Below the pieces are notes generated by a model. It did no database searches and was not told where the DNA came from. It saw nothing but the letters and a program-made list of their open reading frames with translations. A stretch of 64,000 nt of DNA from Eledone cirrhosa (Eukaryota). How positions within the stretch are numbered: position 1 is the stretch's first letter; every line of letters begins with the position of its first letter. The translations under genes were made by a program, and so were the position numbers. Positions 5,198 through 63,545 of the stretch are shown one piece after another. The stretch is from contig OZ024748.1 in the NCBI GenBank assembly GCA_964016885.1, positions 30,256,001 through 30,320,000 on the forward strand. Reading direction: 5' to 3'.

Positions 5198-5683
5198 ATA
5201 CTGATTTTTACCTAGAACTATATTTTAAGAAGAAATTAGAACAACACTAGTATATTACAGGAATTGAATTTATTAACACTGGAAGCATGAAAATTAATAT
5301 GAAACTAAGAGGTATAACAATAAACTAAGTATAACAACAACAAGCATTTTAAGGTTATTTTCCCAGCTAAAGAAAAGGCTAGCCTTCCGAACTCTATGAC
5401 AGACTTTGTACTCATCGTAAAGAATGATACAGCATTTCTTGGGCAAAGCCCATCCCTCTCTGGCTCTGAGTACAGCAGATTTCTTCCAGAGAAAGGATGA
5501 AAAGTAAAGTTGAACTGAGAGAGCAGAGAGGCAGAAAGAATACCATAAAGCACTCTATTCGATGTTCTAACAACTCTGCCTATTTACCACCTATCATAAA
5601 GAATAACATGTTAAAATAAACAGCTTTGTATTGTAGAACCATGTGTGGTTTTTGATGGTTTCTTATCAAAAAGATTAGCTTAC

Positions 5684-7385: not shown

Positions 7386-7539
7386 ATTAAAGTAAGTAAG
7401 TAAAGATTTTTTTCTTATCTTGTTTGCTTTTCCCAGATATGATTATATTATGCTCTGAATGGGTTGATCTCTGTTAATTCTTTCATAGAACAAAACTTGG
7501 TATCGGTTGGACGTCTTTATATGTATCTATATTTGTGTA

Positions 7540-10500
7540 ATTAAAATAAGACTTGTTCTAAATAGAACTACTGTGACGATAATATCTGCGTACACGCCCC
7601 AATCCGGACTGCCTGGCGCTATAAAAGACAGTTTCTATGAGACACTGATGCTCACTACTTCCCAAATAACCGACAGTGACTATATAATTATTGCTGGTGA
7701 CCTAAATGGTCACGTTGGACAACATTGTGACGGTTATGATGGAATCCACGGAGGCTATGGGTTTGGTACTAGAAATGAGGAAGGCTCCAGAATCCTGGAA
7801 TTCTGTGACGCAAATAACCTAACAATCTGTAACACTAACTTCAAAAAACGAGACAATCACTTGATCACCTACAGATCAGGGGAACATACCAGCCAGGTAG
7901 ATTATATCCTTACCAGAAGACGTGACAGAGTGTCTGTTGTAAACACTAAATCCCTCCCCCATGAAGAATGCACCTCCCAACATAGGCTGATAATTAGCGA
8001 CCTCATAGTCAGGACGAGACGTACTCGACAGCAGAAGAGGACTATCCTCAGGAGAAAAATATGGAAGCTAAAGGACCCCACAGCCAGAAATAAATTTCAA
8101 AGCATATTACTTGATGCTTTCGACAGTAAGGAAGAGCATTTAGAGTCGTACAATATAGAGGAACAGTGGGAATTCCTGAAAGCAAACCTGCTGATGGCGG
8201 CAGACGAAGTCTGTGGCCGGAGCAGGCCTATAGGCAGGAGGAGAGTAACATGGTGGTGGAACAGTAAGGTGGAGAAGTCAATTAAGGCCAAAAAGCAGGC
8301 TTAGAAAGTATGGCGGGATGGCGGAAGTAGAGAAGACTATCAAGTGGCCAGGAGGGAAGCTAGGAGACAAGTGTACTTCGCAAGAAGGGAAGCAGAGGAA
8401 AGAAAGTTCAAGCATGTTCTACAACGCGAGGACCAAAAACGTGAGGTGTTCAGGATTGCTAGGCAATGTGTCAAGGAAAACCGTGATATTGTCGGGGAGA
8501 AGTGTGTACTAAATGATGATGGCGTACTTGCCATCACTGACGCTGATAAGAAGGTAGCTTGGAAGTGTCACTACGAAAGGCTACTAAATGGGAGAAGGAC
8601 AGTCTCCCCCACATCGACCCAATAGAGGGACCAGCAGTGTTAGTTGAAGGTAGTATAATAAGTAAGGCAATCAAAGATATGGAGACGGGTAAGGCGGCTG
8701 GACCTTCGGAAATAGTTGCTGAGATGCTGAAAGCCTCTGGAACGGTGGGACACACCATGGTCACCCGGATAGTAAACCAAGTCATACAGAATGGGGTTGT
8801 TCCGAAGGACTGGCGTAGCAGCATCATCATTAACTGTTACAAGGGTAAAGGAGATGCCCTAGATAGGAGTAACTATCGAGGCATTAAATTAATCGACCAG
8901 GTCATGGAGGTCACGGAAAAAGTAATAGGGCAACTAATCAGAGAGAGAATTGATCTAGATGAAATGCAGTTTGGGTTTGTGTCAGGCAAAAGTACCACAG
9001 ACGCTCTTTTCATTGTACGACAACTACAGGAGAAGTACCTAGCTAAAAGTAAACCCCTATACTTAGCTTTTGTCGACTTGGAGAAAGCCTTCGACAGAGT
9101 CCCCCGTTCCATTATCTGGTGGGCTCTTAGAAAACTAGGTGTTGATGAATGGCTTGTGAGAGCTATACAAGCCATGTATAAAGAAACAGTCAGCAAGGTT
9201 AGAATTAACAACGAATATAGTGAAGAGTTTAGCGTAAAAGTTGGTGTTCATCAGGGCTCTGTTCTTAGCCCCCTACTATTTATTATTGCCCTTCAGGCTA
9301 TAACAGTGGAGTTCAAGACTGGCTGCCCATGGGAACTCCTATACGCAGATGATCTAACGCTCATAGCTGAATCAATGGCCGAGCTAGAGAAGAAATTCCA
9401 AACATGGAAGCACGGCCTTAAAATTAACCTGGCTAAGACTAAAGTTCTAGTTTGTAGGAAAGAAAATAAGGTGCCGGTCCCTTCTGGGAAATGGCCATGC
9501 TCAGTGTGTAGGAAAGGAGTAGGTAGAAACTCCATTTTATGTCCCAAATGCAAAGTATGGGTTCATAAAAGATGTAGTGGGATCACAGGTAAGCTAACTA
9601 AGAACATAGATTTTACATGTGGCCGGTGCTCTGGTGCAATAAGTAGCAACAAATGCCACAAAATACTAGCTCTTTCAATTGCGCAGAGGGTTCTATAGAA
9701 ATAGTGGACAGCTTCCGTTACCTGGGTGACAAAATCAGCAGTGGGGGAGGGTGCTCTGAAAGTACAGTAGCTAGAGTCAGAACTGGATGGAAAAAGTTCA
9801 GAGAGCTTATACCACTATTAGCCGCTAAAGAGTTCTCCCTAAAAATGAAAGGCAGGCTGTATGATACCTGTATACGAACAGCAATGTTGCATGGCAGTGA
9901 GACCTGGGCATTGTGTGCAGAGGATATACGCAGACTAGAGAGGAACGAAGCTTGCATGCTCTGCTGGATGTGTAATAGTAATATACGCGAACGGCAAAGC
10001 ATAAACGAACTAAGGGAAAAATTAGAAATAAGAGGGATCAGATGTTGTTTACTCGAGAGAAGGCTACGTTGGTATGGTCACGTGATGCGCATGAAAGACG
10101 ACAGCTGTATAAAAAAGTGCAGGGCAATAAAGATAGACGGTAGCCACGGAGTAGGCAGACCCAGAAAAACGTGGGACGACCTGATAAATTCTGACCTCAC
10201 ACACTTACACCTCTCCAAGACAATGTCACTGGACCGAGATCTTTGGCGGTACTCAGTAATAGAGAAGACCCGCCTTAGCTGAATACAAAGTAAAACCTAC
10301 TATAGTCAGTAGGCATCTCTAACAAAATACACCCCCGTCCCACCACCCCACCCCATCCACACCGCCCCTTTCAATGTAAAGTTATGTTGGTGCCACAACA
10401 TCCAGGCCGAAACAAATGAGGTCGTGTAGGTGTCACGACAAAAAAACACACAGTCCGCGCTGTAATGTGGCCGTGTAGGCAACACGGTAAAAACCTCCCA

Positions 10501-19160: not shown

Positions 19161-19215
19161 CATACATACACACACATTCATATATATATATATACGTACA
19201 TATATGTATATTGAG

Positions 19216-19322
19216 AGTTTAAGACTGGCTGTCCATGGGAACTTCTATATGCAGATGATCTAACTCTCATAGCTGAATCTATGGCAGAACTATAGAAGAA
19301 ATTCCAAACCTGGAAGCATGGC
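19216..19322 (+). mobile_element. RTE fragment, left part (interrupted by viral insert)
   Basis: EFKTGCPWELLYADDLTLIAES...KFQTWKHG; continues at 26941. Confidence 0.9.
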
Positions 19323-19364
19323 AGCTTCCACTGGCAGTGACTACAGTGGGCATGGTTTACTTGT

Positions 19365-20828
19365 TTACAAAGTGGCCTGATAAGTAGGCAAGTGGGCGTT
19401 TTCTATCTTCACAATGGTGGAATGTTCGACCGGTTTTTCTATTTTTGGCGGCATTGTTACTGAGAATTGATTGTAATTTCACTCTTTGGCTTCGTAGCTG
19501 CATTCAATTTCAACGAAATAGGTTAAGTCAAATGTAAAGTATATTTGAGGCCTGGTGTTGTTGGGTCGAACCACGACTGGTACGTTAATGAGACACATTT
19601 CTTGTGGTTCTTCTGGTGTGTATAATACTTTGTTAATTACTGTTCTGTTTGCTACCATGAAGTCACCCGATGCCTGTACGTTTATGCCTTCTACTGTGTG
19701 TGTGTTTTGGTGGTCGAATGTAATGTCTGAATGTTCGGTATAATATATATCTTCCTGGGTAGGTTCTCTGGCTCTTTGTCTCGTCTCCATGAACCCTTCA
19801 TTTCGTTCTGTAGTATGCGATCCTACATACGGTGCTGTACCAGTCTCTAGGCAGCCATCCCATGTCATGTCTAGGTTAACGTTTCTTTCCAGGTTGAATG
19901 CGTCGCCTCTTGTATTAGTTAAGCCTGTTACTGTATAGTTTTGGTCCTTGTCTTAATTTTTTTTTCGATCGCATATCTCTCCAGTCGTGTAATTGATGAA
20001 TAAATAGTTGACTTTTTAAAGTTGTTGCTGTTATCGGCTTATCAGAAAATTGGTTAATCAATGGTATTGGCGCGCAATATATAAATTTATATGTAGGCAG
20101 TTCTAGTTCTGCGAAAGTTGTTGGTTGTGTGAGCTGTAAACCATTGTTCGGTAGTTTTGATATTGTTTTTAAATTACCGTGTCCGATATATTTACCAGTA
20201 TCAACGTAGATTTCGAAATACGGTGTTGGTGAATCTATAAAGATTTCCTCGTTGTTTCTCGTTTGGAACTTGCCACATATGATATCATCAATTTTGAAAC
20301 CTTGTTTGGCTACTCTGTACGATGTAGCCATTTGCGTCATGGCCTCCCATTATGTCGGTTTAATCCATGATGTCATCCAGTATGGTACGATATAATCTTT
20401 TGATTCAACTACACCTTTAGCGTAATGTCCTATATTGTGGTAAGATTTTTCCCCTGTAGATGGGAATTTTTCGAATGATACTTTCGCTTCATTCATGTTA
20501 GTTGTTTTTACAACGTTTCTGAACGTTCTCGATATTGTCTATTTTCGTCTAAAGTTTCCCGAGTCGTCTTGGAATCCTGAAGATTGGATGTTTTGTGTTG
20601 AATGACTTGGCTGAGGGTTTGCTTCGCTTTGGCCGCCTTCGTTCAAATCTGCCATCTTTTTATTAGGTAGAGGATTAGGAAACAAAGCATGATAATTATC
20701 TGGATGGGCTGGTCTGAAGATTTGATCGAGTCCAAAATTGTGTTTAGTGTAGATAGCTCCTGCTGATATAATTCCGAACGGGCCTTGGTGTATTGCTCCG
20801 TCGATAAACTGTTTGTCTGCCTCCCAAG
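19365..20828 (-). pseudogene. Endogenous parvovirus/densovirus-like VP capsid gene, 3' part
   Basis: Continues the PLA2 frame: TWEADKQFIDGAIHQGPFGIISAGAIYTK...KKMADLN...DYIVPYWMTSWIKPT*WEAMTQMATSYRVAKQGFKIDDI...YFTFDLTYFVEIEC; three internal stops and one frameshift near 19950. Confidence 0.8.
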
Positions 20829-20832
20829 TATC

Positions 20833-21315
20833 TGTGGTAATGAAGAATCCTTGTTGGATAGTTTATCAATATAGACGTGAGGGAAAGTCCCTCGTCTATT
20901 TACCATTTTCGTAAGTGAGAGGATAGGTACTCCATAGAATTATGTAAACAACAATGTAAATAAGGATGATGTTTATTTTGTCTATTATGTGCTGGTTATA
21001 TTACAAATGAAACAACATACCAATATAGACGTGATCAGTTGAAATGAAGGCAACGTATTACAATTGTCGTGGGTCACCAATGTAACGGGACCACGTCTGG
21101 GTCACCAGTAGGGTAATGAAGAATCCTTGTGGCTTCGGCATAGGAGTTCAGTGTATTGACATCTGTGTGATCTCGTTGTCCAAAGGCCGTTTGTTGTCTC
21201 CGTGGCTTGTCTGAGAAAGTAATACTGCTGCTTACTTAAATAGTGTTCTCAACCAGGGGGAGACAACTAGGCCTGGTCCATTATCCGATAGGGGGGCGTA
21301 AGGCGTCTTACTACA
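20833..21315 (-). repeat. 3' LTR
   Basis: About 10 substitutions and one ~50-bp indel relative to 26126-26659. Confidence 0.95.
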
Positions 21316-21535
21316 GTATCCCCTGCCAGATTTTCAAATCATCGAAAATCGATGTTATTACTCACACGTGGAGTAAGATGGCGAACAATGCAACAAGGGG
21401 GAGCTATTCGCTCTACCAATCGTTAAATCCAGAATAAGGATTTGAAAAATGTTAAAAAAACATGCATGCATAAAAAAAAAGGCAAAAAAAAAAGCAGAAA
21501 CACAGAAGCAAAAAAAAAGGTGCAGCTAACACAGT

Positions 21536-24500
21536 CTAAATATAGACGGTGCTGCAACATTTTTTGGGCCAGTGGACCCTACGACCTGAACGGGTCGTGG
21601 TCTTGTAACGTGGCGATGGTGGTCGTGTAGGGACAGGCGATGATAGTGGTTCAGGAACAGGCGTTCGCTCAACAGGCAAATACGAAGGGGTTCGTGGATC
21701 AGGAACCACAGCGTCCGTGTCCAGATGTGCCTGCTTAAGCCTGTCTATTGTAACTGTCTCCCTGGACCCGTTAATATCTAGAGTGAAATGCTTAGCCGAG
21801 CGCGCTAAGACACGGTAAGGTCCAGTGTAAGGCTGTGTGAGCGGGGGCTTCACAGAATCTTTCCTTACAAAGACATGCGTCCACGAGGCAACATCTCTCG
21901 GGACAGCAGTCTTGACAGTTTGTTTCCTAGTGTCTATTGGCGGCAAATCCTGGAAATAGGAGCGCAAATGGGACACGTAGGAAGCGTGATCTTGGGCATC
22001 AAGATCGATAGGGGCAAGCATTTGCCCGGGCAACGTCAGAGGAGCACCGTACAGTACTTCAGCCGGTGAAAATCCAAAGTCGACCTTCACTAATAGCACA
22101 ATAGGGAGGTACTCGCTCCAACGCGCCGAGTCCATTGAGGCCATTAAGGAGGCCTTCAGTTGTCGGTGAAAACGCTCCACCATACCATTCGAAGCGGGAT
22201 GGTACGCCATAGTTCTGATGCGTTTAGCACCAATTAATTTTGACAGTTCGAGGAAAAAGCTCGACTCGAACTGTCGTCCACGGACGGTAGTTACTGTGGA
22301 TGGAACTCCATAACGAGAGATCCATCCAGACACAAGAGCACGCGCTGTTGTCTCAGCGGTGATGTTTTTCAAGGGGATGGCTTCAGGCCATCTCGAAAAA
22401 CGGTCAACTATAGTAAGCAGATAAGAATAACCGTCGCTGACAGGCCAAGGTCCCACTATATCAATGTGAATGTGCAAAAAACGCGCATCTGGGTTAGTAA
22501 AGGTACCCAGGGGAGCCTTGACGTGTCGATGGACCTTTGATTTCTGGCAAGCGACGCAGGAACGGCACCAAGCAACAATTTACTGCCTCATATTTGGCCA
22601 GAAAAATCTAGCTGATATGAGGTTTACTGTGGCAGAAGATCCTGGATGTGAGAAACTATGTAATGCCAGAAACACGGTCCGACGATGATTCTCTGGAACG
22701 AAGGGCCTAGGCACGTCCAAAGAGACGTCGCAGAGAATTTGGCCAACTGCAGTCGACAGAGGCAAGTATTTCATCTCGTAATTCGCAAACTCAGGCGATA
22801 TAACATCCAATGACTCAAAGGGAGGCTGATCCGCAGCCAAACGAGTCAGATCTATGTCAGAGGGTGACGAGATCGCTGTCATGGGTAAGCGGGACAAAGC
22901 ATCGGCCGCTGTATTCAGTGAACCCGGAATGTGTTGGATATCGTTCGTATATTGCGAGATGAAATCAAGGTGCCACGTCTCTCTGGGCGAGTATTTATCA
23001 GCCTTCGCTCTCAACGCAAAAGTTAATGGTTTATGGTCAGTGAGGATAGTAAATAGTCTACCCTCTAGCATATGTGAAAAATGTTTCACGGCTAAATAGA
23101 TGGCTAAAAGCTCCCTTCCAAAGGTGCTGTAGCGCGTCTCAGCAGGTTTCATTTTTCTGGAAAAAAACTCGAGCGGTTGCTGGTAACCATTGATGTTTTA
23201 TTGTAGCACTGCGCCCACAGCGATATCCGATGCATCAACACAAAGCGTTAGCTTTGCACCGGGTACCGGGTGAGCCAGTAAAGAAGCATTAACCAAAGCA
23301 GTTTTGGCGTGCTGAAAATCAGCAAGTTGAGTCTCGGTTAAAGAAATGTCTGTATTCTTCTTCCGACAATTTTTTTAAATTTTCGTCAGGGAGAAAAGCA
23401 ATCTTGCACAATTTGGCACGAAACGCCTATAAAAATTAATCAGGCCAAAGAACTGGCGTAACTGACGTAGTGAGGTCGGTGGAGGCAAATCCTCTATGAC
23501 CTTAACTCGCTCAGGCCGGGGTCGAATACCGTCAGCATCGATGACGTGACCCAAGAAAGTCAGTGACTCAGCACCAAAAACACATTTGGGTGCATTAATC
23601 TGCACGTTATACGCCTTCAATCGGCGGAAAAGAAGATTTAAATGGTGCGTATGTTGTTCTTGAGAAGAACTAGCAATGAGCAGGTCGTCAATATATGTAT
23701 AGACGAAATCGAGGCCACGAGTAACCTCACCCATAAACCGCTGAAACGTACTAGCGGCATTCCTTAATTCGAACGGCATGGTCAAAATCTCAAATGACCC
23801 AAATGGCGTAACTATAGCCGTTTTTGGAATGTCATTTTTATGGACAGGAATTTGATGGTACGCACGAATTAAATCTAGTTTGGAGAATACCTTGCATCCC
23901 TGCAACGAAGACGCAAAGTCTTGCAGATGAGGGATAGGATAACGGTCCGGTTCCGTTATTGAATTTAAGCGTCGATAATCTCCAGTAGGTCTCCAATCGC
24001 CAGTCGCTTTCGGTACCATGTGTAATGGGGACGCCCACGGGCTCGTGGACGGACGAATAATTCCCAACTGCAGCATATGATCAAACTCTGATCGTGCTGC
24101 TTTGAGTTTGTCCGGAGGCAAGCGACGAGGACGAGAAAAAACGGGAGCACCAGTTGTAGTTATGAAGTGCTCCGTGGTATGAGTTGGCTCATCAACTCGA
24201 AAATTTCCCTGAGTCAGTTGCGGGAACGAGTTCAACAACGCATGGTAAGTATCGCCGGTGTTAGCAAGAAAAAAGGTCGGGCTAACCGTTGGAACTCCTG
24301 CTGCCTTGCCAACAACAGTTAAACCAGTGATGTCATCAATTAGGCGTTTACGACGGAGGTCCACCGTCAATGAAAAATGGTGGAGAAAATCCGCGCCTAG
24401 AATCGGATACGGCAAGGCAGCGACAGTAAAAATCCATTTAAACTCACGCCGCAGATTACAGAACTGCAAAGGTAGCGAGATTTGTCCGAAAGTTCGAATC

Positions 24501-24715
24501 GGCGAACAATTTACTGCCTGCAACTCAATAGGTGACTCAGGGGGAGTCTCCTTCATACAACAAACAGGCCATATTGAACAAACTGCACCTGTGTCAACCA
24601 GAAAGGCTCTACCTGATAGCAGGTCCTCAATGAAAAAGTGGCGGTTGGATGATGTTTCGCAGAGCGCACTATCCGCCGTTAGTGACTCTGGTCGTCGTTT
24701 CCCTCGTAAGCACAA
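21536..24715 (-). pseudogene. Gypsy pol (PR, RT, RNase H, IN), disrupted
   Basis: FLVDTGA; LDLIRAYHQ; YIDD; FGRELLAIY; HIDIVGP; NGMVERFHR; PYTGPY; stops and frameshifts. Confidence 0.9.
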
Positions 24716-25459
24716 GGAGGCCTACAACGGGCGGCTTTGTCACCATATTTGTCATGGTAATAACAATATGGTGGATTTGAAGATTTGGAAAGGCTACGGT
24801 GGCGAGGAGTAGAATAAGATCGTGAGCGGCTCCTCTGCCGTCCAAAAGACCTGAGTTCCTGGCACAACTCCGCCATTTGACGAGTCATGGCTTCCATTGT
24901 TTTGACCAACTTCTCATCACTCGCTGATGAGCGTGATTGAGGAAGAGAAGAGGAAGCAACGTACTTTTGCTTCGAAGTGTCTCTCTTCGTCACTTCTACT
25001 ATTTTGTCGGCAGAGACAGCAATGTGGTCGAGTGTGTTTAACTCTAGCATATGGGCTAGGATCGCCTGTACCTCTTGAGGTAGGCGAGAGAAGAACAATT
25101 GCTTCAGGAAAGGGCTATCCTGATCTTGGGAATCACTCAATTCCCGCAAATGCCGGAGAAAAGCGGTAGGGGTTCTGTCAACTAGTCGTTCGTCCTAGAT
25201 CAATGACCGAAAACGACTCTCTACCGATTTACAGTTCCTTCTCAAGATCTCGCCTTTTAAAGAATCATACGTTAAGTCAGAGGGGGGGGGGGTCTGTAAT
25301 TAGGTCTTGGACCGAATCTGCTAAATTAGGGAGAAGTCCGCTAATCAAGACAGCGAGGCGCTGGTCAGACTCGGTCTTACAGACCGTAAAATACGCCTGT
25401 AGCTGGGCGAACCACAGCTTAGGGTTTCCGGTAAAGGCGGGCAAATGTGGCGTATTCAT
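24679..25459 (-). pseudogene. Gypsy gag, frameshifted
   Basis: LPAFTGNPKLWFAQLQAYF...FFSRLP...[18 protein letters not shown] (CHCC motif). Confidence 0.85.
24697..24703 (-). promoter_or_regulatory. Putative -1 frameshift slippery site G GGA AAC
   Basis: XXXYYYZ in the gag frame, pol in the -1 frame, downstream stem AGAGTCACTA/TAGTGCGCTCT. Confidence 0.7.
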
Positions 25460-26111
25460 TGTGAAACGAAAAAAAAAAATAGAAACAGCAATTAATGTTC
25501 CCTCGTACAGGGAAAAGTAAACACCCAAAATGGAAAAAAAAAAATCAAAAGTCAAAAAGAAACAGACATTCAAAACATTAGGAAATAGCAAAAATACATA
25601 AAGTACATATATATATTTTTTTTTAAAAATGTTTTCCTTCAACGTCTGTCCCCTTGTGTTGCTTCAACGGGCAAGCCAAATCATATAACCCGAAAAAAAG
25701 AGAAAAAAAAAAAATGTTTGTTTTAGAATATATCCACGTTGGATATCAACAATAGGTAGCCTGTGGTTAAAAATCCCTTAGAAAAAAAAAAGTAAGGTAT
25801 GTGTATCCACTGCGGGGCAGTAATGGTCACAAAAACAGTTTTTCTCTTGATCAAATATGGAACACACACAAGCAATTCAAAATGTCCCTGTCCTGGCGGG
25901 AAAATTGCAAAACGTAGAAGAAAAGCAACGCCATATTGGAAAAATTTTTGGCTGGTTTTTTGTATACTTTGTCAATACTGTATAAACACATTATTATTTC
26001 TCTGTCTTTTTTTTTTTGTGTATTTTTGTAAGTTGCGAAAAGGTTGGCAACGTGGTAATAACAGTGAAATATTTAAGTTCAAATGAATAAAAGGCTGCGT
26101 AAAATTCTTTA

Positions 26112-26124
26112 GTCGGGGTTACCA
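26112..26124 (-). promoter_or_regulatory. Primer-binding site, tRNA-Trp type
   Basis: TGGTAACCCCGAC, one mismatch to TGGTGACCCCGAC. Confidence 0.8.
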
Positions 26125-26125
26125 G

Positions 26126-26659
26126 TGTGGTAATGAAGAATCCTTGTTGGATAGTTTATCAATATAGACGTGGGGGAAAGTCCCTCGTCTATTTACCATT
26201 TTCGTAAGTGAGAGGATAGGTACTCCATAGAATTATAACAAGTGAGTGTGTGTGTGTGTAGACAAGATAATAACCACAACGAGAGTTCTATTCAACAATG
26301 TAAATAAGGATGATGTTTATTTTGTCTATTATGTGCTGGTTATATTACAAATGAAACAACATACCAATATAGACGTGATCAGTTGAAATGAAGGCAACGT
26401 ATTACAATTGTCATGGGTCACCAATATAACGGGACCACGTCTGGGTTACCAGTAGGGTAATGAAGAATCCTTGTGGCTTCGGCATAGGAGTTCAGTGTAT
26501 TGACATCTGTGTGATCTCGTTGTCCAAAGGCTGTTTGCTGTCTCCGTGGTTTGTCTGAGAAAGTAATACTGCTGCTTACTTAAATAGTGTTCTCAACCAG
26601 GGGGAGACAACTAGGCCTGGTCCATTATCCGACAGGGTGGCGTAAGGCATCTTACTACA
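26126..26659 (-). repeat. 5' LTR
   Basis: Paired with 20833-21315. Confidence 0.95.
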
Positions 26660-26858
26660 TATCCTTATAAGGGTCGGTGTAGTGGAGGTCATGGACTTTC
26701 GCTAGTCTATCAAGTTCGTTTAGAGGTTCTTCTTCTAACTTACTTAATATATGCGTTCCGGGACACAGAAATTTGTAGCCTGGTGGATGTAATTCGAATG
26801 TTGATTCTTTTAGTGTATCAGCTGCGCTCTTTTTCTTGGCACCTCTTATCGGTGGCAT
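26660..26858 (-). pseudogene. Endogenous parvoviral VP1-unique region (PLA2 N-terminal half)
   Basis: HPPGYKFLCPGT...EPLNELDRLAKVHDLHY matches the parvoviral PLA2 pattern PGYKYLGPGN...P.N.LD.AA..HD..Y. Confidence 0.85.
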
Positions 26859-26869
26859 GTGAATATTTC

Positions 26870-26905
26870 AAATGACACTGTCAATGGTTTACATCGATAT
26901 TTATA
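26870..26905 (-). promoter_or_regulatory. Putative viral VP promoter (TATAAAT + Inr TCATTT)
   Basis: TATA at 26905-26899, TCAKTY initiator about 30 nt downstream, ATG 12 nt further. Confidence 0.55.
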
Positions 26906-26940
26906 ACGGGGCACCTCTTACTTCCATCGCAAGCGCTTTC

Positions 26941-27458
26941 GAATCAAAAGACCTTAAAGTTAACTTGTCTAAGACTAAAGTTCTAGTATGTAGAAAGGAA
27001 AATAGGGCACAGGTGCCCTCTGGGGAATGGCCATACTCAGTGTGTAAGAAGGGAGTAGGTAGATAATCCGTTGTATGTCCTAAATGCAAACTATGGGTAC
27101 ATAAAAGATGTAGTGGGTTCACAGGCAAGCTATCAAAGAATGTAGATTTTATTCTCAGTTGCAATAAGTAGCAGGTGCCCAGTGGATACTAGCTCCTTCC
27201 ATTGCCCAGATGGTTCTATAGAAATAGTAGACACGTTCCGTTACCTGGGTGACAAAATCAACAGTGGAGGAAGGTGTTCTGAGAGTACAGCAGCCAGAGT
27301 AAGAACGGGGTGGAAGAAGTTCAGAGAGCTAATACCACAGTTGGCCACAAAAGGTTTCTCTCTAAAAATGAAAGGCAGATTATATGATGTATACGAAATG
27401 TTACATGGTAGTGAGACCTGGGCAGTGCGTGCAGAGGATCTGCACAGATTGGAAAGAA
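26941..27458 (+). mobile_element. RTE fragment, right part
   Basis: ESKDLKVNLSKTKVL... directly continues KFQTWKHG(L) at 19322. Confidence 0.9.
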
Positions 27459-27467
27459 TATATATAT

Positions 27468-27945
27468 ATATTATTGAGTAAAATGACAGGAGGTCGGACT
27501 GGTGAAATTCCTTCAAAGATTTATTTCAGCAAACACTATGTACATTTCAGTGGCCAGGTTACAGAGAAATATGTAACCTGATCTCCTTTACCACTAGCAT
27601 GTGTCTAAATAGCAGGGTAGTAGTAATAGGCATACAACCCCCTGACCAAATCGGTAAGATAAAATTGATCAGAATCCTCACTCGAAGGTGGTCAGCCAAA
27701 CTAACAACAATTGGCCCTCTTGATCGCCTTTGAGTCAAAAAAATGTTTCTGTTTTTTTATATCCGTATAGCCTCTTGGATTGTGTTTACCATAATTCCTT
27801 TATTATATAACTATTATGCAATAAACACCTGATGATGTCACCAGGATATTACGTTACCTGGCCACTGAAATGTACATAGAATTTGTTGAAATAAATCTTT
27901 AAAGGAATTTTACCAGTCCAGCCTCCTGTCATTTTACTCAATAAT
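27468..27945. repeat. ~93-bp inverted repeat (Penelope-type terminal repeat) with hammerhead at 27823-27884
   Basis: 27468-27560 is the reverse complement of 27853-27945; AAACAC-CUGAUGA...GAAA-UGUACA-UA. Confidence 0.75.
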
Positions 27946-28093
27946 AATTAACTCCATTCTCGCACCACCAACACGATTCAACATCAAAGCTGGATGAGTT
28001 GCATAATGTTGAGTGTTTTTCCTAATATTACATCATGGTTGGCTATACAGAATGACCAGTTCTATCCAGTGGTGAACCACCAAACTTAAATGA

Positions 28094-35992: not shown

Positions 35993-36335
35993 ATCATCAT
36001 CATCATCATTTCATTTTACGTCCGCTTTTTCCCTGCTTGCAAGGGTGTGACGGGAACTGATTCTGGCTTGATTTCTACAGCCGGATGCCCTTCCTAACAC
36101 CAACCTCATTTACAGTGAGTGCTGGGTGCTTTTTTGCCGTGGCACCTACACGTCCACTTTACAGTGAAATGATAGGGACCCCAGTCCCTATCATCTCATT
36201 TCTACAGCTGAGTAAACTGGAGCAATGTGAAATAAAGTGTCTTGCTCAAGGAAACAACACATCACCTGGTCTGAGAATTGAACTCACAATCTTTCGATTG
36301 CAAGGCCAATGCTCTAACCACTAAGCCATGTGCCT

Positions 36336-36338
<3 letters not shown>
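35993..36338 (-). mobile_element. Full-length CORE-SINE with RTE tail
   Basis: Reverse complement of the copy at 45198. Confidence 0.9.
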
Positions 36339-36393
<55 letters not shown>

Positions 36394-36394
36394 C

Positions 36395-39160
36395 CCCCTC
36401 CCCCCCCATGAAGAATGCACCTCCCAACATAGACTGATAATTAGCGACCTCATAGTCAGGACGAGACGTACTCGACAGCAGAAGAGGACTATCCTCAGGA
36501 AAAAAATATGGAAGCTAAAGGACCCCACAGCCAGGAATAAATTTCAAAGCATATTACTTGATGCTTTCAACAGTAAGGAAGAACATGTAGAGTCGGACAA
36601 TATAGAGGGAGAGTGGGAATTTCTGAAAGCAAACCTGCTGTTGGCGACAGACAAAGTCTGTGGCTGGAGCAGGCCTGTAGGCAGGAGGAGAGTAACATGG
36701 TGGTGGAACAGTAAGGTGGAGGGGTCAATTAAGGCCAAAAAGCAGGCTTGGAAAGTATGGCGGGATGGGGGAAGTAGAGAAGACTATCAAGTGGCCAGGA
36801 GGGAAGCTAGGAGACAAGTGTACTTAGCAAGAAGGGAAGCTGAGGAAAGAAAGTTCAAGCATGTTCTACAACGCGATGACCAAAAACGTGAGGTGTTCAG
36901 GATTGCTAGGCAATGCGTCAAGGAAAACCGTGATATTGTCGGGGAGAAGTGTGTACTTAATGATGATGGCATACTTGCCATCACTGACGCTGATAAGAAG
37001 GTAGCTTGGAAGTGTCACTATGAAAGGCTACTAAATGAGGAGAATAAATGGGAGAAAGACAGTCTCCCCCATATCGACCCAATAGAGGGACCAGCAGTGT
37101 TAGTCGAGGGGAGTATAATAAGTAAGGCAATCAAGGATATGAAGACGGGTAAGGCGGCTGGGCCTTCGGAAATAGTTGCTGAGATGCTGAAGGCATCTGG
37201 CACGGTGGGACACACCATGGTCACCCGCATAGTTAACCAAGTTGTACAGAATGGGGTTGTTCCGAAGGACTGGCATAGCAGCATCATCGTTAACTGTTAT
37301 AAGGGTAAAGGAGACGCCCTAGATAGGAGTAACTATAGAGGCATTAAATTAATCGACCAGGTCATGAAGGTCACGGAAAAAGTAATAGCACAACTAATCA
37401 GAGAGAGAATCGACCTAGATGAAATGCAGTTTGGGTTTGTGTCAGGCAAAAGTACCACAGACGCTCTTTTCATTGTACGACAACTACAGGAGAAGTACCT
37501 AGCTAAAGGTAAACCCCTCTACTTAGCTTTTGTCGACTTGGAGAAAGCCTTCGACAGAGTCCCCCGCTCCATTATCTGGTGGGCTCTTAGAAAACTAGGC
37601 GTTGACGAATGGATTGTGAGAGCTATACAAGCCATGTATAAAGAAACAGTCAGCAAGGTTAGAATTAACAACGAATATAGTGAAGAGTTTAGCGTAAAAG
37701 TTGGCGTCCATCAGGGCTCTGTTCTCAGCCCCCTACTATTTATTATTGCCCTTCAGGCTATAACAGAGGAGTTCAAGACCGGCTGCCCATGGGAACTCCT
37801 ATACGCAGACGACCTGACACTCATAGCGGAATCAATGGCCGAGCTAGAGAAGAAATTTCAAACATGGAAGCACGGCCTAGAATCAAAAGGCCTTAAAATT
37901 AACCTGGCTAAGACTAAAGTTCTAGTTTGTAGGAAAGAAAATAAGGCGGCGGTCCCTTCTGGGAAATGGTCGTGCTCGGTGTGTAGGAAAGGCGTAGGTA
38001 GAAACTCCATTTTATGTCCTAAATGCAAAGTATGGGTGCATAAAAGATGTAGTGGGATCACAGGTAAGCTAACTAAGAACATAGATTTTACATGTGGCCG
38101 GTGCTCTAGTGCAATAAGTAGCAGCAAGTGCCCACAAAATACTAGCTCTTTCAATTGCGCAGAGGGTTCTATAGAAATAGTGGACAGTTTCCGTTACCTG
38201 GGTGATAAAATCAGCAGTGGGGGAGGGTGCTCTGAAAGTACAGTAGCTAGAGTCAGAACTGGTTGGAAAAAGTTCAGAGAGCTTATACCACTATTAGCTG
38301 CTAAAGGGTTCTCCCTAAAAATGAAAGGCAGGTTGTACGATGCCTGCATACGAACAGCAATGTTGCATGGCAGTGAGACCTGGGCATTGTGTGCAGAGGA
38401 TATACGCAGACTAGAGAGGAACGAAGCTTGCATGCTCCACTGGATGTGTAACAGTAATATACGTGAACGGCAAAGCATAAACGAACTAAGGAAAAAATTA
38501 GAAATAAGAGGGATCAGATGTTGTTTACTCGAGAGAAGGCTACGTTGGTATGGACACGTGATGCGCATGAAAGTCGATAGCTGTATAACAAAGTGCAGGG
38601 CAATAAAGATAGACGGTAGCCACGGAATAGGCAGACCTAGAAAAACCTGGGACGAGCTGATAAACTCCGACCTCACACACTTATACCTCTCCAAGACAAT
38701 GTCACTGGACCGAGACCTTTGGCGGTACTCAGTAACAGAGAAGACCCGCCTTACCTAAATACATAGTAAAACCTACTACAGCCAGTAGGCATCTAACAAA
38801 ATACCCCCCCCCCCCCCCCCCCCGTCCCACCACCCCCAACCCATTCCACGCCACCCCGTTCTATGTAAAGTTGTGTTGGTGCCACACCATCCAGGCCGAA
38901 AGAAATGAGATCGTGTAGGTGTCATGACAAAAAAACACACAGTCCACGCTGTAATGTGGCCGTGTAGGCAACACGGTAAAAACCTCCCAGACCCACACTG
39001 TAAATGTGGTTGGTGTTAGGAAGGGCATCCAACTGTAGAAAACCTGCCAGACAGTCCTATGCGAGCAAGACAATCACTCTTGCCTCAAGTGGGACTACCC
39101 CCGTCCAAACCCATGCAAGCGTGGAACACGGACGTTAAACGGTGATGATGATGATGATGA

Positions 39161-54489: not shown

Positions 54490-54868
54490 GGTACAGAGCT
54501 TAGTGTTGTTTTAAAAAAATAGCTTTATTTACAAACACCAGAGAATTTGAAAATTAGATAGTGAAATAGAGTTTCCACCATATTTTTGACTAAGTAAATT
54601 AGGCTAATAGTTGGAGTTATAAAAACCCCCAGATTGGAAAAAGGGATGAGTATTGATGTACATGGGACACGAACCCACATCTTTGGCTATCCTGACCACT
54701 GTGTTACCCTTACACCAATACGTCACCCATCAAATTTCCAATCAATTTGAAGCTACATAATCATAGCGTATGAATACATATATAGTCAAAAATATGGCGG
54801 AAGCTCTATTTCACTATCTAATTTTCAAATTCTCCACTGTTTGTAAACAAAGCTAAGCTCTGTATCTT
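54490..54868. repeat. ~95-bp imperfect inverted repeat
   Basis: 54515-54592 is the reverse complement of 54783-54855. Confidence 0.7.
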
Positions 54869-56724: not shown

Positions 56725-56974
56725 ATATACAAATATAAGGAATCAAAACATATATACATAAATCTTTTACATTTGATTTATTGTTGCTCTGGATAAAGTC
56801 TATTAAGCTAGTTTATATTGAGAAGCACAAAATTCCTCACATTTGTATACAACAGCTCCAAAACTCTTAACTTGTTGAGTTGAGGTGACTATAATTTCCA
56901 CACCTCTCTCTATCGGAATTAACATCCACTTTTGTTGATATCTCTTGCCTTGGGTTTAACATAATCACACCGAG

Positions 56975-58337
56975 AGGCGATGGATGAGGTTTGTGGCTGG
57001 AGTAAGACCTCAAGCAGGAGGAGAGTGACTTGGTGGTGGAACAATAAGGTAGATGAAGCAGTTAAGGCCAAGAGACAGGCATGGAAAGAATGGAAGAACG
57101 GGGGGAGCAGGGTACATTACATAGAGACCAAGAGGGAAGCTAGGCGACAAGTATACTTAGCTAGGAGGGAAGCAGAGGATAGAAAATTCAAGCATGTTTT
57201 GCAACGTGAGGACCAGAAACAGGAGGTATTCAAGATTGCGAGGCAGTGTGTCAGAGATAGTTGTGATGTCATTGGAGAGAAGTGTATCCGGAATGATAAA
57301 GGTGAGCTTGCCCTCACAAGTGCTGAGAAGAAAGATACATGGAAGAGTCATTATGATAGATTACTAAATGAGGAGAATGCATGGGAAGAAGAGACCCTAC
57401 CCCAAGTAGACCCTATAGAGGGGCCAGCAGTACAAGTCAGCAGCAACGTAGTAAGTAAGGCAATCAAAGATATGAAGATGGGGAAGGCAACCGGTTCATC
57501 GGGTATAGCTGCCGAGATGCTGAAGGCATCTGGGTCTGTAGGTCACACTATAACCACACGTATTGTTAACCAGGTAATACTAGAAGGTGTCATACCAAAA
57601 GATTGGTGCAGTAGCATCATTGTCAACTGCTACAAAGGTAAAGGCGATGCACTAGATAGAGGAAACTATAGAGGTATAAAGTTGATGGACCAGGTCATGA
57701 AAGTAACAGAAAGAGTTATAGCACAGTTGATTAGGGACCGGGTGAAAATAGACGAGATGCAATTTGGGTTTGTACCAGGAAGAGGCACCACTGATGCCCT
57801 CTTCCTTGTGAGGCAGTTACAGGAAAAATACCTAGCTAAAAGTAAGCCACTCTACTTGGCATTTGTCAACCTTGAGAAAGCCTTTGACAGAGTTCCATGT
57901 GCTGTAATCTGGTGGGCTCTTAGAAAACTAGGAGTAGATGAATGGCTTGTGAAAGCGGTACAAGCCATGTATAGGGGAGCAGTCAGCAAAGTTAGGATTA
58001 GCAATGAGTATAGCGAGGAATTTAGCGTACAGGTTGGGGTCCACCAGGGCTCTGTTCTTAGCCCCTCCTGTTCATCATAGTCCTACAGGCAATAACGGAG
58101 GAGTTTAAGACCGGATGCTCATGGGAACTCCTGTATGCTGATGACCTCACACTCATAGCTGAATCTATGGTAGAACTAGAGAATAAATTCCAAACTTGGA
58201 AGCAGGGACTAGAAAGAAAGGGTCTCAAAGTCAACATGACAAAGACTAAGGTCCTTGTAAGTAGACGAGAAAACAGAACCCAGATCCCCTCAGGGAAATG
58301 GCCTTGCTCAGTATGTAGGAAAGGTGTAGGTAGGAAC
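56975..58337 (+). mobile_element. RTE LINE, left part (split by LTR element)
   Basis: TWWWN, NYRGIKL, LEKAFDRV, YADD; ends at GVGRN. Confidence 0.95.
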
Positions 58338-58631: not shown

Positions 58632-61508
58632 TCAAGGATCAATTTCCCCCTCGTCCCTCTGCATATGAAAGTCTGCCGTCCAGGTCGGTGGTCTACGACT
58701 TTGTTGCGATCTTCGTAGTATTGGGGCAGAGCTCTGGGTTTCCACCTCATCTTGGGTTTCCTCTTCCTCGGAGTCCGTCGACACAGTGATTCTTCTTACA
58801 TCCAGGACATGACGTGGTACCCCGTCCACGGACACATTGTTCTTTGAATTTACGGCCGTCACCGTTCCCCTTCCCCATTGAGATGTGCAACGTGCATCTG
58901 GGGGTTTAACCCAGACTTCTTCGCCCACCTGCACGAATGCACTCTCTCTCCCCACTGGCCGTTGTGGTGGCGTGCACGGGTGCCGCCACTCGTATTTGAA
59001 TACTGCTCTATGTGGCACCGATTCCTCGACCTGTCCAACCCGAGGGGACATATTGTACCAGAAGACTGCCTCCATTGGTGAGATATGGCCCCGCTCCGCC
59101 ATTGCCTTGATCGTCCGGTGGTGTCGCTCCACGATTCCATTCCCGCTCGGCCTGTGCGCCGCTCTGAAGAAACGGTCCACCTTCCATCCATCGAGCATCT
59201 CCCTCAGTGCCTCCGAGCGGAACGCTGCGCTGTTGTCCATCAGCAGTTCATCCACAGGGCCCCGCTCCAAGAACACCTCTCTCAACGTCCGCACGATTTC
59301 CTCGGCCGTTCCAGTCTTCATCTCCCTCCATATCACCATTCGACCTGGTCCACAGTCGACCATCGAGAGGTACGTTCCCTGCCGATAGTACGTCACATCC
59401 ACCGCTAATCGCTTCCAGTCGCGATCCACCGGGAGGCTTCCCGTTTCGTGTACACCCGGGGCGGGATCAATGGACTGACATCGGACGCAGCCTCTAACCA
59501 CCCCCCGAACACTGTGTCTGCTAACGTCCGAGTCGATTCTCTTGGCTAGGAACAGGCTCCTATCCACCCCCATGTGGTGCATGTCATGCAACCCCTTCAG
59601 GTCTAACTCGGTCAGCCGACACACGGCAGCTATCTCATCCTCTACCTCCTCCAGCGCTTCCATCCAGGCTTTCTTCACTCTAGTTAAGATGTCCACCCTA
59701 TTTTTCTCTGAGGGCACGAACACTACCCTCAGCTTCAGGTCGAACTCGGTGGCCAGCTCTCCTAACGTTCCCAGGCGGCGCTTTATCAGCATCTCCGCCG
59801 CGCCTCTCGTTCGCACTCTCTTCTCACTGGTGAGCACTGATCTTACCCATCCGAGTACAGTAGCCGAGTCGGTGCATATCTCGATGGTGCGCAGCCCCCA
59901 CCGCAGGGTGGGGTTCACCCCTCTCAACACCGCGTCCAGCTCGGCCACATTGATGTGGCTGCAGTCGTCCTTCTTTCTAAGCCAGGCTGCATCCTCGACC
60001 TCAACACCTATCTCCAACGGTGACACCCAGCGCTATGCTGCTGGCATCGCACCATACGGTCCCACTCCGTGATTTGGGAACGTACCAGCGTCCCCGCACT
60101 GGGTCGTCGGCCTTCACCCTCCCCACGATCTCCTGCATCATGGCCACCGTTCTCTCTCCTGCTCTGTCACTCCAAGTCACCCCTCCCGCTCGTCTCTTGA
60201 CATAGCTGCATGCCGTCCGGAGCCACCCAGCGATTGGGTAGTGACCCACCAGCTTTCCACACACCGAGAAAAGCTCCCGCCTATTCATACTTGGGCCCAG
60301 TTCCGGAACTTCGTTTCCCCTCTGGAACACCAAAACGCCCGTCTTATCTCGCCGTAGCCAAAGTCCCAGCGCGGCTCCTCCCTCCAATGCTTCTGATGGC
60401 TTCGCAGTCAGTCCATACCTCCGCAAATGGCTCGTGACCTCCGCCGTCGACAGCACCGACTCGTCCACTAGGATGTCGTCAATATAGGAGTTAGTAGCCC
60501 TCTTTATCTTGTCGGCCCTCCCCAGAGCAGTCTTGAGGACCGCCACCATGATCTTCGGTGTGGAGCTCAGCCCGAAACCGAGCCTGGTCAGGCAATATGT
60601 CCGGCCCTTATACCTGACCAGCTGATACCGCCAGAGCTTCTCATCTATATGCAACTGCAAGTAAGCCGACTTTAGATCCACGATCGCTGAACCCCCCGTC
60701 ATGCGTCTCCACTCACGCAGGGTTTCCCCACAGACATCCGTGACCTCGCCACCCGTGTGGCATGACACGTGCTCGTTCAGCTCTCGATAGTCCAGCACCG
60801 GCCTCACCTTGCCCTTCGTGGGTTGCACCACCGCCATCAACGGCAATACTCCGCACTTCACCTCCTCCTTCCAGGGAAGCAGTATGCCCTCTTCGATCCA
60901 TCTCTCTACTTCTCGCTCGAACTCGCTCCTAGCGTTTCCCTTCAATGTGTGTTGATAGCAGCCCACTTTAGTCTTCAGTGTTGGTGGTTCTCCCTTCCAG
61001 TACCACTCAACAACCCATCGCTGCCCATCAAACACGGCCTTGAAGTCTTTGTCCTGTACAGTGTAAGCGGGGTATTCCTCCTCGTGGGCCTTCTGGTTCT
61101 CATGACGTGCACTCACAGCACATACTGATGCAGCGGCGACAAACGACACACCGACATTGTTCACCGTGACGCCCCCTAGACGGCCAATCGCGTCCATGCC
61201 CATAACCACACCGATCCCATCCACCACACTGTCTACCACGATGGCGGAAAGCCTTATCGTCCTTCCCCGTACCGCTATTTCCATCTCGCTGCGACCTCGG
61301 CATTCCTGCCGTCGACTGCCCTTACGCTGCTCTTCCCTCCCCACCTCTGCGCCACCCCCGCGGTCACCAGTGTCGTCGTACAGCCCGTATCCACGAGGGC
61401 TCGCTGTGGCTTCCCCCTCACGAAGACTTCCACCACGGGCAGCGCCGCTACTCGTAAGGGGCAACTACCGGCGCAGTAGTTCCCCTTGGATCGTTTTCCT
61501 GGTCGCAT
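58632..61508 (-). pseudogene. pol (PR-RT-RH-IN) of the LTR element, with frameshifts
   Basis: ORFs 61275-61508, 60001-61464 and 58632-60026. Confidence 0.85.
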
Positions 61509-62195
61509 TTAGTAGCGATGTGGCCTGGTCGCTTACACCGGTAGCAAATTATCTCCGGCTTCGACTCTCTACAGTCTCTAGCCATATGCGGGCCCTGGCA
61601 CCTAAAACAGCGCCCCCTAAATTCGTCCCGAGGTTGCCTCCCTTTGACCATTTCGCTGCCAGGTGTCCTGAGCCTCCGTAGTCGCTATCGCCGCAACACT
61701 CTTTTTGGCATCTTCCGCTATGATCCGGGCTTGTTCCACCAGTGAACGCATTTCCATCTCTTTATAACCCGGGACTTGCTGCAGTTTCACCGCTATGTCG
61801 TCCGGAAATCCATTGATGAACGGCAACCGCACCGTGCGTTCGCATTCCGCCTGGTAACCGGCCAACATAGCCAACCGCCTTATTTCCGCTGCGAAAATGT
61901 CGACGCGCTCACCATTCCACCTGATTCTCGCCAGCTTAGCAAAAGCCGCCAACGGTCCCTCGGCGAATGCATCCATCAGACGCCTCTCAATCTTCTGCAC
62001 ATCTCTTTGGCTGTGCTCGTCCAACTCAAGGAAGAGTACCAGCGCGTCGCCCTCGAGGTACAATGCCATGAAACCGGCCACGTCTTCTATCTTCTGCAAG
62101 CCTGCGACCAGCCGAACCTTCCGCGGCAAAGTGACAACATCACCTTCCCCGGTGAATGGCCTGATAGCTTCGTTCATCCGTAGTCTTGTCGCCAT
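61448..62195 (-). pseudogene. gag with two zinc knuckles, one frameshift
   Basis: CFRCQGPHMARDC and CYRCKRPGHIATKC. Confidence 0.85.
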
Positions 62196-62247
62196 CTTCT
62201 GATTTGTTTTGCGGCAAGTGTTTTCTTTTTTTTTTTTTTTTTCAGTC

Positions 62248-62259
62248 GCCGAAATAGCT
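62248..62259 (-). promoter_or_regulatory. Atypical PBS complementary to tRNA-Phe nt 1-12
   Basis: Element sense AGCTATTTCGGC abuts the 5' LTR; complement GCCGAAATAGCT is the 5' end of metazoan tRNA-Phe(GAA) as recalled. Confidence 0.7.
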
Positions 62260-62515
62260 TGTGGTTAGAAAAAGCTATCTCACTTACCGCTTTTCACAGG
62301 CGCCGCTAAATTCCACTGCAGGTACTCCTCTTCCACGTGCGTCCGACTGCTTAACACCGGGAGCTGCCCAAAACTCGCGTCCACACCGTGTGCTGGTCAC
62401 CACTAGAGAGAGGCCTTCTCCTGGCCCTTCCGGTCGAGCATCCTTCCGGCCAAAGACCACTTCCGGTCGAGCACTCCCCCCGCCTCCGGCCACCGCACGC
62501 CACACCATACCCACA

Positions 62516-63545
62516 GGAACTCCATTCTCTGCCCCAAATGCAAACAATGGGTACACAAGAGATGTAGCGGGATCTCAGGAAGCTTAATTAAGAATGTAGG
62601 CTTCCCATGCAGCAGCTGTGCTGGGACAGCAAGCAGCAAACAGCCACAGGAAACAAGTACCACCAATCTCTGGGAGGGCTCTGTAGAAACAGTAGACAGC
62701 TTCTGCTACCTAGGTGACCGAATTAGCAGCGGATGTGGGTATTCAGAAAGTACAATAACTAGGGTAAGAACGGGATGGAAGAAGTTTAGGGAACTACTAC
62801 CACTGCTTGCTGCAAAAGCCTTCTCCCTCAGAATGAAAGGCAGACTGTATGATGCGTGCATCCGAACAGCAATGTTGCATGGTAGTGAGACCTGGGTGCT
62901 GAAGGTGGAAGACTTACGTAGATTAGAGAGAAACGAAGCCTGCATGCTCCGATGGATGTGTAACAGTAATATACGTGAACGACAAAGCATAAATGAATTG
63001 AGAGAGAGACGGAGCATAAGAGGAATCAAATGCTGTGTGCAGGAGAGGTGGTTGCGCTGGTATGGACATGTGATGCGTATGAAGGATGACAGCTGCATAA
63101 AAAGGTGCAAAGCACTAGAAGTTGATGGAAACCGCGGAGTGGGGAGACCCAAGATGACCTGGGATGAGGTGATAAAAGCCGACCTTACCCAATTACACCT
63201 CTCTGGCGTCACGCAGTAATACAGAGTACCCGACCTCCCATGGGTACAAGCTGAAGCATAAAGACAATATGCCCCCACACCCCCCACTGCAAGGTGGTCG
63301 TGGAGGTGCCACGGCAAAAAAGCACCCAGCCCACACTGTAAAGTGGACGTGTAGGCGCCACGAAAAAGCACCCAGCACTCACTGTAAATGAGGTTGGTGT
63401 TAGGAAGGGCATCCAGCTGTAGAAATCAAGCCAAATCAGTTCCTGTATGAGCAAGGCATGGTCAGCCGACCAGACACTGCCCACAACAGGACAACCCGTC
63501 TAACCCATGCTAGCGTGGAAGAACGGACGTAAAACGGTGATGATG
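62516..63545 (+). mobile_element. RTE LINE, right part with 3' UTR
   Basis: NSILCPKCKQWVHKRC continues from 58337. Confidence 0.95.

Follow-up and report, generated by a model that had tools for sequence, protein, structure and literature searches.

The textbook timing of parvovirus gene expression, replication genes before capsid genes, rests on an NS-first gene order. Parts of a 2024 review (PMC11357303) state that NS occupies the left and VP the right in all parvoviruses, and 170 viruses are reported with NS on the left in parts of another study (PMC9896142). The ICTV profile lists hairpins, NS1 and VP, and gives no gene order (PMC6537627). The monosense Parvoviridae (Parvovirinae, Hamavirinae, Iteradensovirus) combine hairpin ends, an NS1 of the HUH and SF3 type and a VP1 with an N-terminal PLA2, in about 4 kb and with both cassettes on one strand. 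The megaparvoviruses (SwaBA-MePV-1 group), known from endogenous copies, have an odd layout, with a PLA2-coding ORF 5′ of NS1, a capsid gene without PLA2 3′ of NS1, and four large ORFs in ~6.4 kb (parts of PMC13426907). As for cephalopods, neither they nor octopus are mentioned in the consulted parts of the 2024 review, and the main text of PMC10433990 holds no cephalopod term. NS fragments from Octopus bimaculoides, Sepia officinalis and Euprymna scolopes, and a VP fragment from Octopus vulgaris, are nevertheless found in the consulted part of the supplement of Francois et al. 2016 (PMC5013282), which terms them new lineages yet to be characterised. A literature search among journals open without subscription returned no paper on an octopus parvovirus or on a capsid-first monosense parvovirus.

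We analysed a 64,000-nucleotide stretch of the Eledone cirrhosa genome, hereafter the window (contig OZ024748.1, positions 30,256,001 to 30,320,000). It contains what is very likely a dead piece of a parvovirus-like ssDNA virus, from a hairpin-ended lineage of ~4 kb with the capsid gene first (VP then NS1). This family resembles the monosense Parvoviridae in all the features named above, but its VP lies upstream of NS1 and, in one of its two lineages, most likely within an intron of the NS1 message. With the megaparvoviruses it shares a PLA2-coding ORF 5′ of NS1, an odd layout and endogenous copies; these differ from it by their separate 3′ capsid gene, number of ORFs and size. Cephalopod NS and VP fragments were already listed in the 2016 supplement. 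A sequence-only reading of the window had called the virus possibly undescribed; this has to be qualified in view of these fragments, and it is the capsid-first lineage that is probably undescribed. The features of the window are as follows (L numbers are loci of the same genome).

19215..19322, plus strand: host LINE with RT, left side of the target site; 36 aa match the LINE ORF 36275-38758 at 97%
19323..19356, minus strand: start of the VP-NS1 gap, where the viral piece terminates; matches the L031 gap
19357..19464, minus strand: VP C-terminal piece, in a third frame, with the true stop at its end; 88.6% to the last 35 residues of L031
19443..19952, minus strand: third VP piece; 43% to P0001 over 166 aa, E 9e-35
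19945..20832, minus strand: middle VP piece, with the PLA2 end, linker and first half of the capsid core; 77% to L020, and the family profile matches parvoviral VP1
20643..20828 (begins at 26692), minus strand: ORF in the +1 frame across the PLA2 region, its 3′ part; shortened in this copy, with a stretch that looks hydrophobic by eye
20829..20832, no strand: left copy of the target site duplication, TATC, flanking the Gypsy element
20833..21315, minus strand: Gypsy 3′ LTR, from the LTR pair comparison
21536..25663, minus strand: gag-pol of the Gypsy element, no longer intact (DUF7041, RT, RNase H, integrase; Pfam)
26126..26659, minus strand: Gypsy 5′ LTR, of a repeated family with at least 42 matches (40 of 345 candidates scored)
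26660..26663, no strand: right copy of the target site duplication, TATC, flanking the Gypsy element
26660..26858, minus strand: VP1 5′ piece, with the start codon, calcium loop and HD motif of PLA2; PF08398, 79% identity to L020
26900..26905, minus strand: candidate TATA box of the VP promoter; a TATA-like site is equally placed in the window, L032, L020 and L021
26910..26940, minus strand: what is left of the inner arm of the hairpin at the left end; alignable with the 3′ arm of the L021 hairpin (43-bp stem)
26941..27457, plus strand: right half of the target, same LINE as the left flank

The capsid gene is interrupted within PLA2 by a Gypsy element at 20833-26659, as had been proposed from the letters alone. 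The element ends in TG..CA and is flanked by a 4-nt target duplication, the alignment of its two LTRs shows 11 mismatches over 483 bases and 51 gap positions (K2P 0.023), and its pol order by Pfam is RT, RNase H, integrase; TG..CA LTRs, a short target duplication and this domain order are those of Ty3/Gypsy elements. The predicted in-frame join across the insert was confirmed by natural empty sites: the insertion-free relatives L032 and L020 span the insertion point and read through, with an overlap equal to the four duplicated bases, and this establishes the continuity of VP1. The proposed outer limits, 26940 and 19323, also held, since both flanks match one LINE. The matched LINE copy is covered up to 37876 by the left flank and from 37880 by the right one, so that 3 LINE bases are gone and none is duplicated; ~1.8 kb of viral sequence (26940-19323) is thus embedded in a single LINE. 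Because this piece starts upstream of the TATA box, and has neither poly(A) nor target duplication, it is best read as viral DNA joined by end-joining; mRNA retroposition was rejected on these three points.

Several LINE copies with an RT followed by a PHD-like finger lie in the window (36275-38758, 7489-10282, 1109-2146 and 56965-58080), and the copy at 36275-38758 is an open frame of 827 codons. A GC-rich retroelement (DUF7047, RT, RNase H-like, integrase) occupies 58632-63425 on the minus strand. At 27455-27960 there is an inverted repeat pair of 108 nt, 87% complementary and spaced by 290 nt, which is probably a MITE, and a tRNA-Ser(GGA)-like sequence at 54653-54725 (minus strand) may be a SINE head.

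The VP pieces of the window were examined one by one, with X in place of stops. The 66 codons of the 5′ piece (26858-26661) taken alone match the Pfam family of parvoviral PLA2, PF08398 (E 9.3e-8, 32.7 bits, cut-off 23.9). The PLA2 identity claimed earlier on the basis of its hallmarks therefore stands, except that the calcium-loop motif differs from that of the relatives at one position. Stops are present at 20541 and 20352 in the middle piece and at 19481 in the third piece, that is the three that had been counted; there are however two frameshifts, near 19950 and near 19450, and not one, and the gene ends at the stop 19359-19357 rather than near 19365. Compared to L031, two internal deletions are found, near 19490 and 19450, the latter being the one that shifts the frame. 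The Met put forward as a possible VP2 start is conserved in the relatives. No NS1 gene had been seen, and indeed none of three NS queries gave a tblastn row in the window. NS1 is missing because the viral piece stops 34 bases past the VP stop and NS1 lies downstream of VP in this lineage. We conclude that this VP1 copy is dead, with three stops, two frameshifts and no NS1: a genuine fossil, of an ordinary kind.

The parvoviral nature of the fossil is supported by profiles of its family. In single-sequence searches the middle piece had no Pfam family, no PDB match, and no match among the longer proteins of a word-indexed database. Used against the 3.0-Gb genome it comes from, it gave 29 matches, and the neighbours of these yielded a second capsid type (VP-B, as opposed to the VP-A of the window) and two NS types (NS-A and NS-B), with 66, 75 and 77 matches. 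VP-B is 23-27% identical to VP-A, and NS-A about 21-24% identical to NS-B. Positions 7-262 of the VP-A profile align to a solved parvoviral VP1, 9me0 (E 1e-8), with PLA2 and then the capsid strands in order. The VP-B profile matches, outside PLA2, the Penaeus monodon metallodensovirus capsid 6wh3 (E 1.3e-9) and 9nek (E 3.6e-5), described in the consulted part of PMC12115719 as the capsid of a pipefish (Syngnathus scovelli) chapparvovirus. In the Atlas, parvoviral VP1 clusters were top-ranked at 0.94 for both VP-A and VP-B, a single source of evidence that may be driven by PLA2. The profile of the C-terminal half of VP-A had no PDB match, and the second half of VP-A matched VP-B weakly (58%, E 1e-4); the predicted jelly-roll capsid is supported by sequence profiles over the first half of VP. 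Both NS types match Parvo_NS1 at about E 1e-16, the NS profile finds AAV Rep (E 1e-17) ahead of papillomavirus E1 (5e-5), and a HUH-like motif was recognised by eye in the NS alignment.

The relatives thus have a hairpin-bracketed coding region, an NS1 (Parvo_NS1, AAV Rep-like, with a HUH-like motif) and a VP1 with PLA2; of the hairpins, the window retains an arm remnant only. On the ICTV features that could be looked for in sequences, the family is parvovirus-like. The descriptive rule of a left-hand NS and a right-hand VP (parts of PMC11357303) is violated, and we therefore file the family as parvovirus-like and not as a formal member. Where the sequence-only reading spoke of an endogenous parvovirus or densovirus VP1, the parvovirus-like VP1 fossil is borne out by the 9me0 alignment and by Parvo_NS1 in the relatives, and the densovirus assignment is not. 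That reading had also suggested looking for relatives and NS1, and both were found in the same genome.

Clustering at 30 kb placed the matches in ~71 loci over 26 contigs; VP-A is present at 18 of these and VP-B at 33. These counts are lower bounds, and weak NS-only loci are included uninspected. The loci fall into two lineages, A (that of the window) and B, found together at 3 loci. In a VP tree of 22 rows, used for the placing of the window and disregarding two out-of-frame rows (B_L037 and B_L013), the window groups with L032 (95/89) and L020 (100/100). Compared to four relatives, the capsid codons of the window have a dN/dS of 0.056-0.109, at a dS of 0.56-2.9. The capsid and PLA2 were therefore under purifying selection between copies, and we conclude that the copies stem from separate infections by functional viruses and not from host duplication. 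Other copies are young: on three chromosomes and a small contig there are B copies that share 98-100% of their sequence (dS 0.006-0.009) and form fold-back concatemers. This near identity suggests recent activity, and the fold-back concatemers are what would be expected of rolling-hairpin intermediates. Among these B copies (L033, L034, L036 and L037), L036 and L037 have a common flank and could represent a single insertion in two versions. Two tandem arrays mix A and B units, L014/L013 (G000:C12:9072600-9088500) and L019/L020 (G000:C2:345365000-345396000); they are interspersed with hAT, DDE and Helitron-like (PIF1) pieces, and could be integration hot spots or co-infection concatemers. Within an endogenous NS-B gene (L028:6650-7670), a tandem repeat of ~96 nt has expanded.

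The middle piece also matches 33 proteins from outside this genome. Ten of them were looked up: eight have their source in Logan assemblies and one in ENA, and the tenth is a predicted protein of Octopus vulgaris. Two of the 33, P0024 and P0032, are long repetitive proteins and were judged false. The cluster of P0028, a distant VP-A relative, is repeatedly found on Logan contigs of about 3.1-3.2 kb. The NS profile returned 36 proteins, 34 from Logan and two from the cuttlefish Acanthosepion pharaonis, with no named parvovirus NS1 among them. Given the named relatives, the host of the virus is probably an octopus, as judged from these sequence matches. Scans of IMG/VR, of one metagenome and of a phage set returned nothing, and no free virus contig was seen.

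To examine gene order, 40 stretches surrounding the best matches were taken from among the ~71 loci; 37 of them had matches. Among 42 VP/NS neighbour pairs within 1.5 kb, 31 were VP then NS, eight NS then VP, and three on opposite strands. VP-B followed by NS-A made up 17 pairs, in 13 of which 53-58 nt separate the two matches, and this junction is also spanned by a contig of run X5, about 89% alike, which comes from another study and another organism. The eight reverse pairs mix types in four ways, and all were found where pieces of at least two units occur in one stretch; in the three that were checked (L013, L017 and L025), left-end sequence or a hairpin stands in between. Hairpins were found before VP at five loci (L021, L023, L033, L036 and L045) and after NS at three (L021, L037 and L040), and the four that were folded (both of L021, L023 and L040) had z about -12 to -24. 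L021, of the lineage of the window, has a hairpin at each end: upstream of VP the stem is a perfect 43 bp (z -17.9), and downstream of NS it is 27 bp long (z -11.9). The viral piece of the window begins within the inner arm of such a left hairpin, and its remnant does not fold by itself (z 0.10). The B unit measures ~3.9 kb between hairpin tips (L037), with only two long ORFs; its hairpins are unlike each other, yet both carry a GGGA-repeat motif. We conclude that the unit is laid out hairpin-VP-NS1-hairpin on one strand, the reverse of the usual parvovirus order. A segmented genome was rejected, as each unit carries both cassettes. The end motif of the left hairpin arm, AAGAGGTGCC (window 26911-26920), is invariant in the 7 aligned lineage-A copies; it recurs a few codons into VP (window 26839-26849), also in L032 and L020, and may be an NS1-binding site.

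This order could be an artefact of integration, if conventional (NS then VP) or circular viruses had given VP then NS through head-to-tail concatemers or host rearrangement. Mixed arrays do contain the eight NS-then-VP pairs, and concatemers and inversions are frequent in young B copies. Against this, hairpins stand before VP and after NS, the gap of 53-58 nt is too small to hold one, single units exclusively have VP then NS, the order is the same in two lineages with NS ~21-24% identical and in another organism (X5), and splice sites flank VP (see below). We regard such an artefact as improbable. We would give a slightly better, still small, chance to a parvovirus-derived element that spreads mainly by integration, with A and B perhaps interdependent, and that is not an ordinary infectious virus. 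The ~71 loci on 26 contigs, the near identity (98-100%) of B copies spread over three chromosomes and a small contig, and the meeting of A and B at 3 loci are in its favour; however, there is neither target duplication nor integrase, the capsid and PLA2 are under purifying selection, the integrated forms resemble truncated replication intermediates, and each unit has its own NS1 and VP.

It is far less plausible that the PLA2 gene is no capsid gene at all, and encodes a separate PLA2 protein upstream of NS1, in the style of the megaparvoviruses linked to beetles, or that a Polinton-like virus was its source. Megaparvoviruses do provide a precedent, with a PLA2 ORF 5′ of NS1 and the capsid 3′ (PMC13426907, in the part consulted, section 3.3.1). 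But the 3.9-kb B unit holds just two long ORFs, VP-B matches two parvoviral capsids outside PLA2 (6wh3 and 9nek, above), VP-A and VP-B align to each other over 323 columns (98.2%), and VP-A aligns to parvoviral capsid strands. The sequence-only reading had itself named a Polinton/adintovirus or cellular PLA2 as the rival that would overturn it; this rival fails. Polinton-like viruses, adintoviruses and Bidnaviridae were also rejected because the hairpin-bounded B unit has VP and NS1 as its only long ORFs, and no protein-primed DNA polymerase gene.

With a capsid-first unit, the question is how NS1 is expressed. A contig from run X4 joins positions 5671 and 7290 of L037, skipping 1618 bases bounded by GT..AG on the coding strand, and the skipped stretch contains the entire VP-B gene. 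The joint is seen in one contig, whose shorter side spans 29 letters, from a run whose type is unrecorded as RNA and whose study is the same as that of the best holder; it is not listed for runs X1, X5 and X18, and no RNA holder is listed for the young B unit. An upstream ATG opens an 18-codon leader, in phase with NS1 and stop-free on both sides of the joint. In 11 of 13 B copies the VP start is preceded by a donor-like site at a distance of 7 or 10 bases; a pyrimidine-rich acceptor-like site is present in the VP-NS gap in 9 of 9, and the leader exon has a conserved coding pattern. From the X4 joint and this conserved donor, acceptor and leader, we conclude that lineage B most likely produces NS1 by splicing out the whole of VP, and VP from the unspliced message.

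Lineage A has no donor-like site just before the VP start (9 of 9 rows). A TATA box is found in the VP-NS gap of L031 and L020 and in the VP end of L027; none was seen in the gap of L013-type A copies. From the missing donor and these boxes we infer that NS1 of lineage A would be expressed from a second promoter near the VP end. The +1 frame over PLA2 is open for 110-119 codons in lineage-A relatives, with a hydrophobic stretch as judged by eye. It is longer than in synonymous shuffles in 5 of 10 lineage-A rows (p up to 0.014), rows that are not independent since the copies are related; it is not significant in the other five (p 0.056-0.19; short or frameshifted), nor in 6 of 6 B rows. By its placement it can be likened to the X protein of B19 and ARF1 of PARV4, +1 frames over the PLA2 region with a central transmembrane region (parts of PMC10891878), except that here the +1 ORF is restricted to lineage A.

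The source virus would have had a linear genome of ~4 kb with differing end hairpins, and VP then NS1 on one strand. In lineage B, the left promoter would yield NS1 by splicing and VP from unspliced RNA, and in lineage A it would yield VP, with NS1 from the second promoter and a small membrane protein from the +1 frame. By analogy with the family, rolling-hairpin replication, a T=1 capsid and PLA2-driven entry may be expected. As for the window, a viral DNA fragment running from the left hairpin through the whole capsid gene would have been end-joined into a LINE copy; a Gypsy element later inserted into the PLA2 region, and the fossil decayed. We lean, with some reserve, towards an undescribed, subfamily-level group of cephalopod parvoviruses, capsid-first and still circulating, one branch of which keeps VP in an NS1 intron and switches by intron retention, the other using a second promoter. 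A reversed order apparently achieved in two ways would mean that the parvovirus layout is not fixed, and with a capsid-first lineage the rewiring of the NS-to-VP switch can be put directly to the test. The lineage also provides a specific DNA virus family to search for in cephalopods. Its fossils are dense, with ~71 loci in a single genome that range from decayed to almost identical.

The best capsid-core matches of VP-B, the metallodensovirus 6wh3 and the chapparvovirus 9nek, are short, at ~55 residues. VP-A and VP-B differ from these lineages in carrying PLA2, which according to parts of PMC13426907 is limited to two subfamilies and one transfer; the capsid thus combines PLA2 with a core closest to lineages that lack it. 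The cephalopod fragments of 2016 resemble NS-A and NS-B by eye, and are fragments only, with no genome layout in the compared parts of PMC5013282. An NS fragment of the tubeworm Lamellibrachia, in the same part of that supplement, resembles NS-A by eye as well, and so the lineage may extend beyond molluscs.
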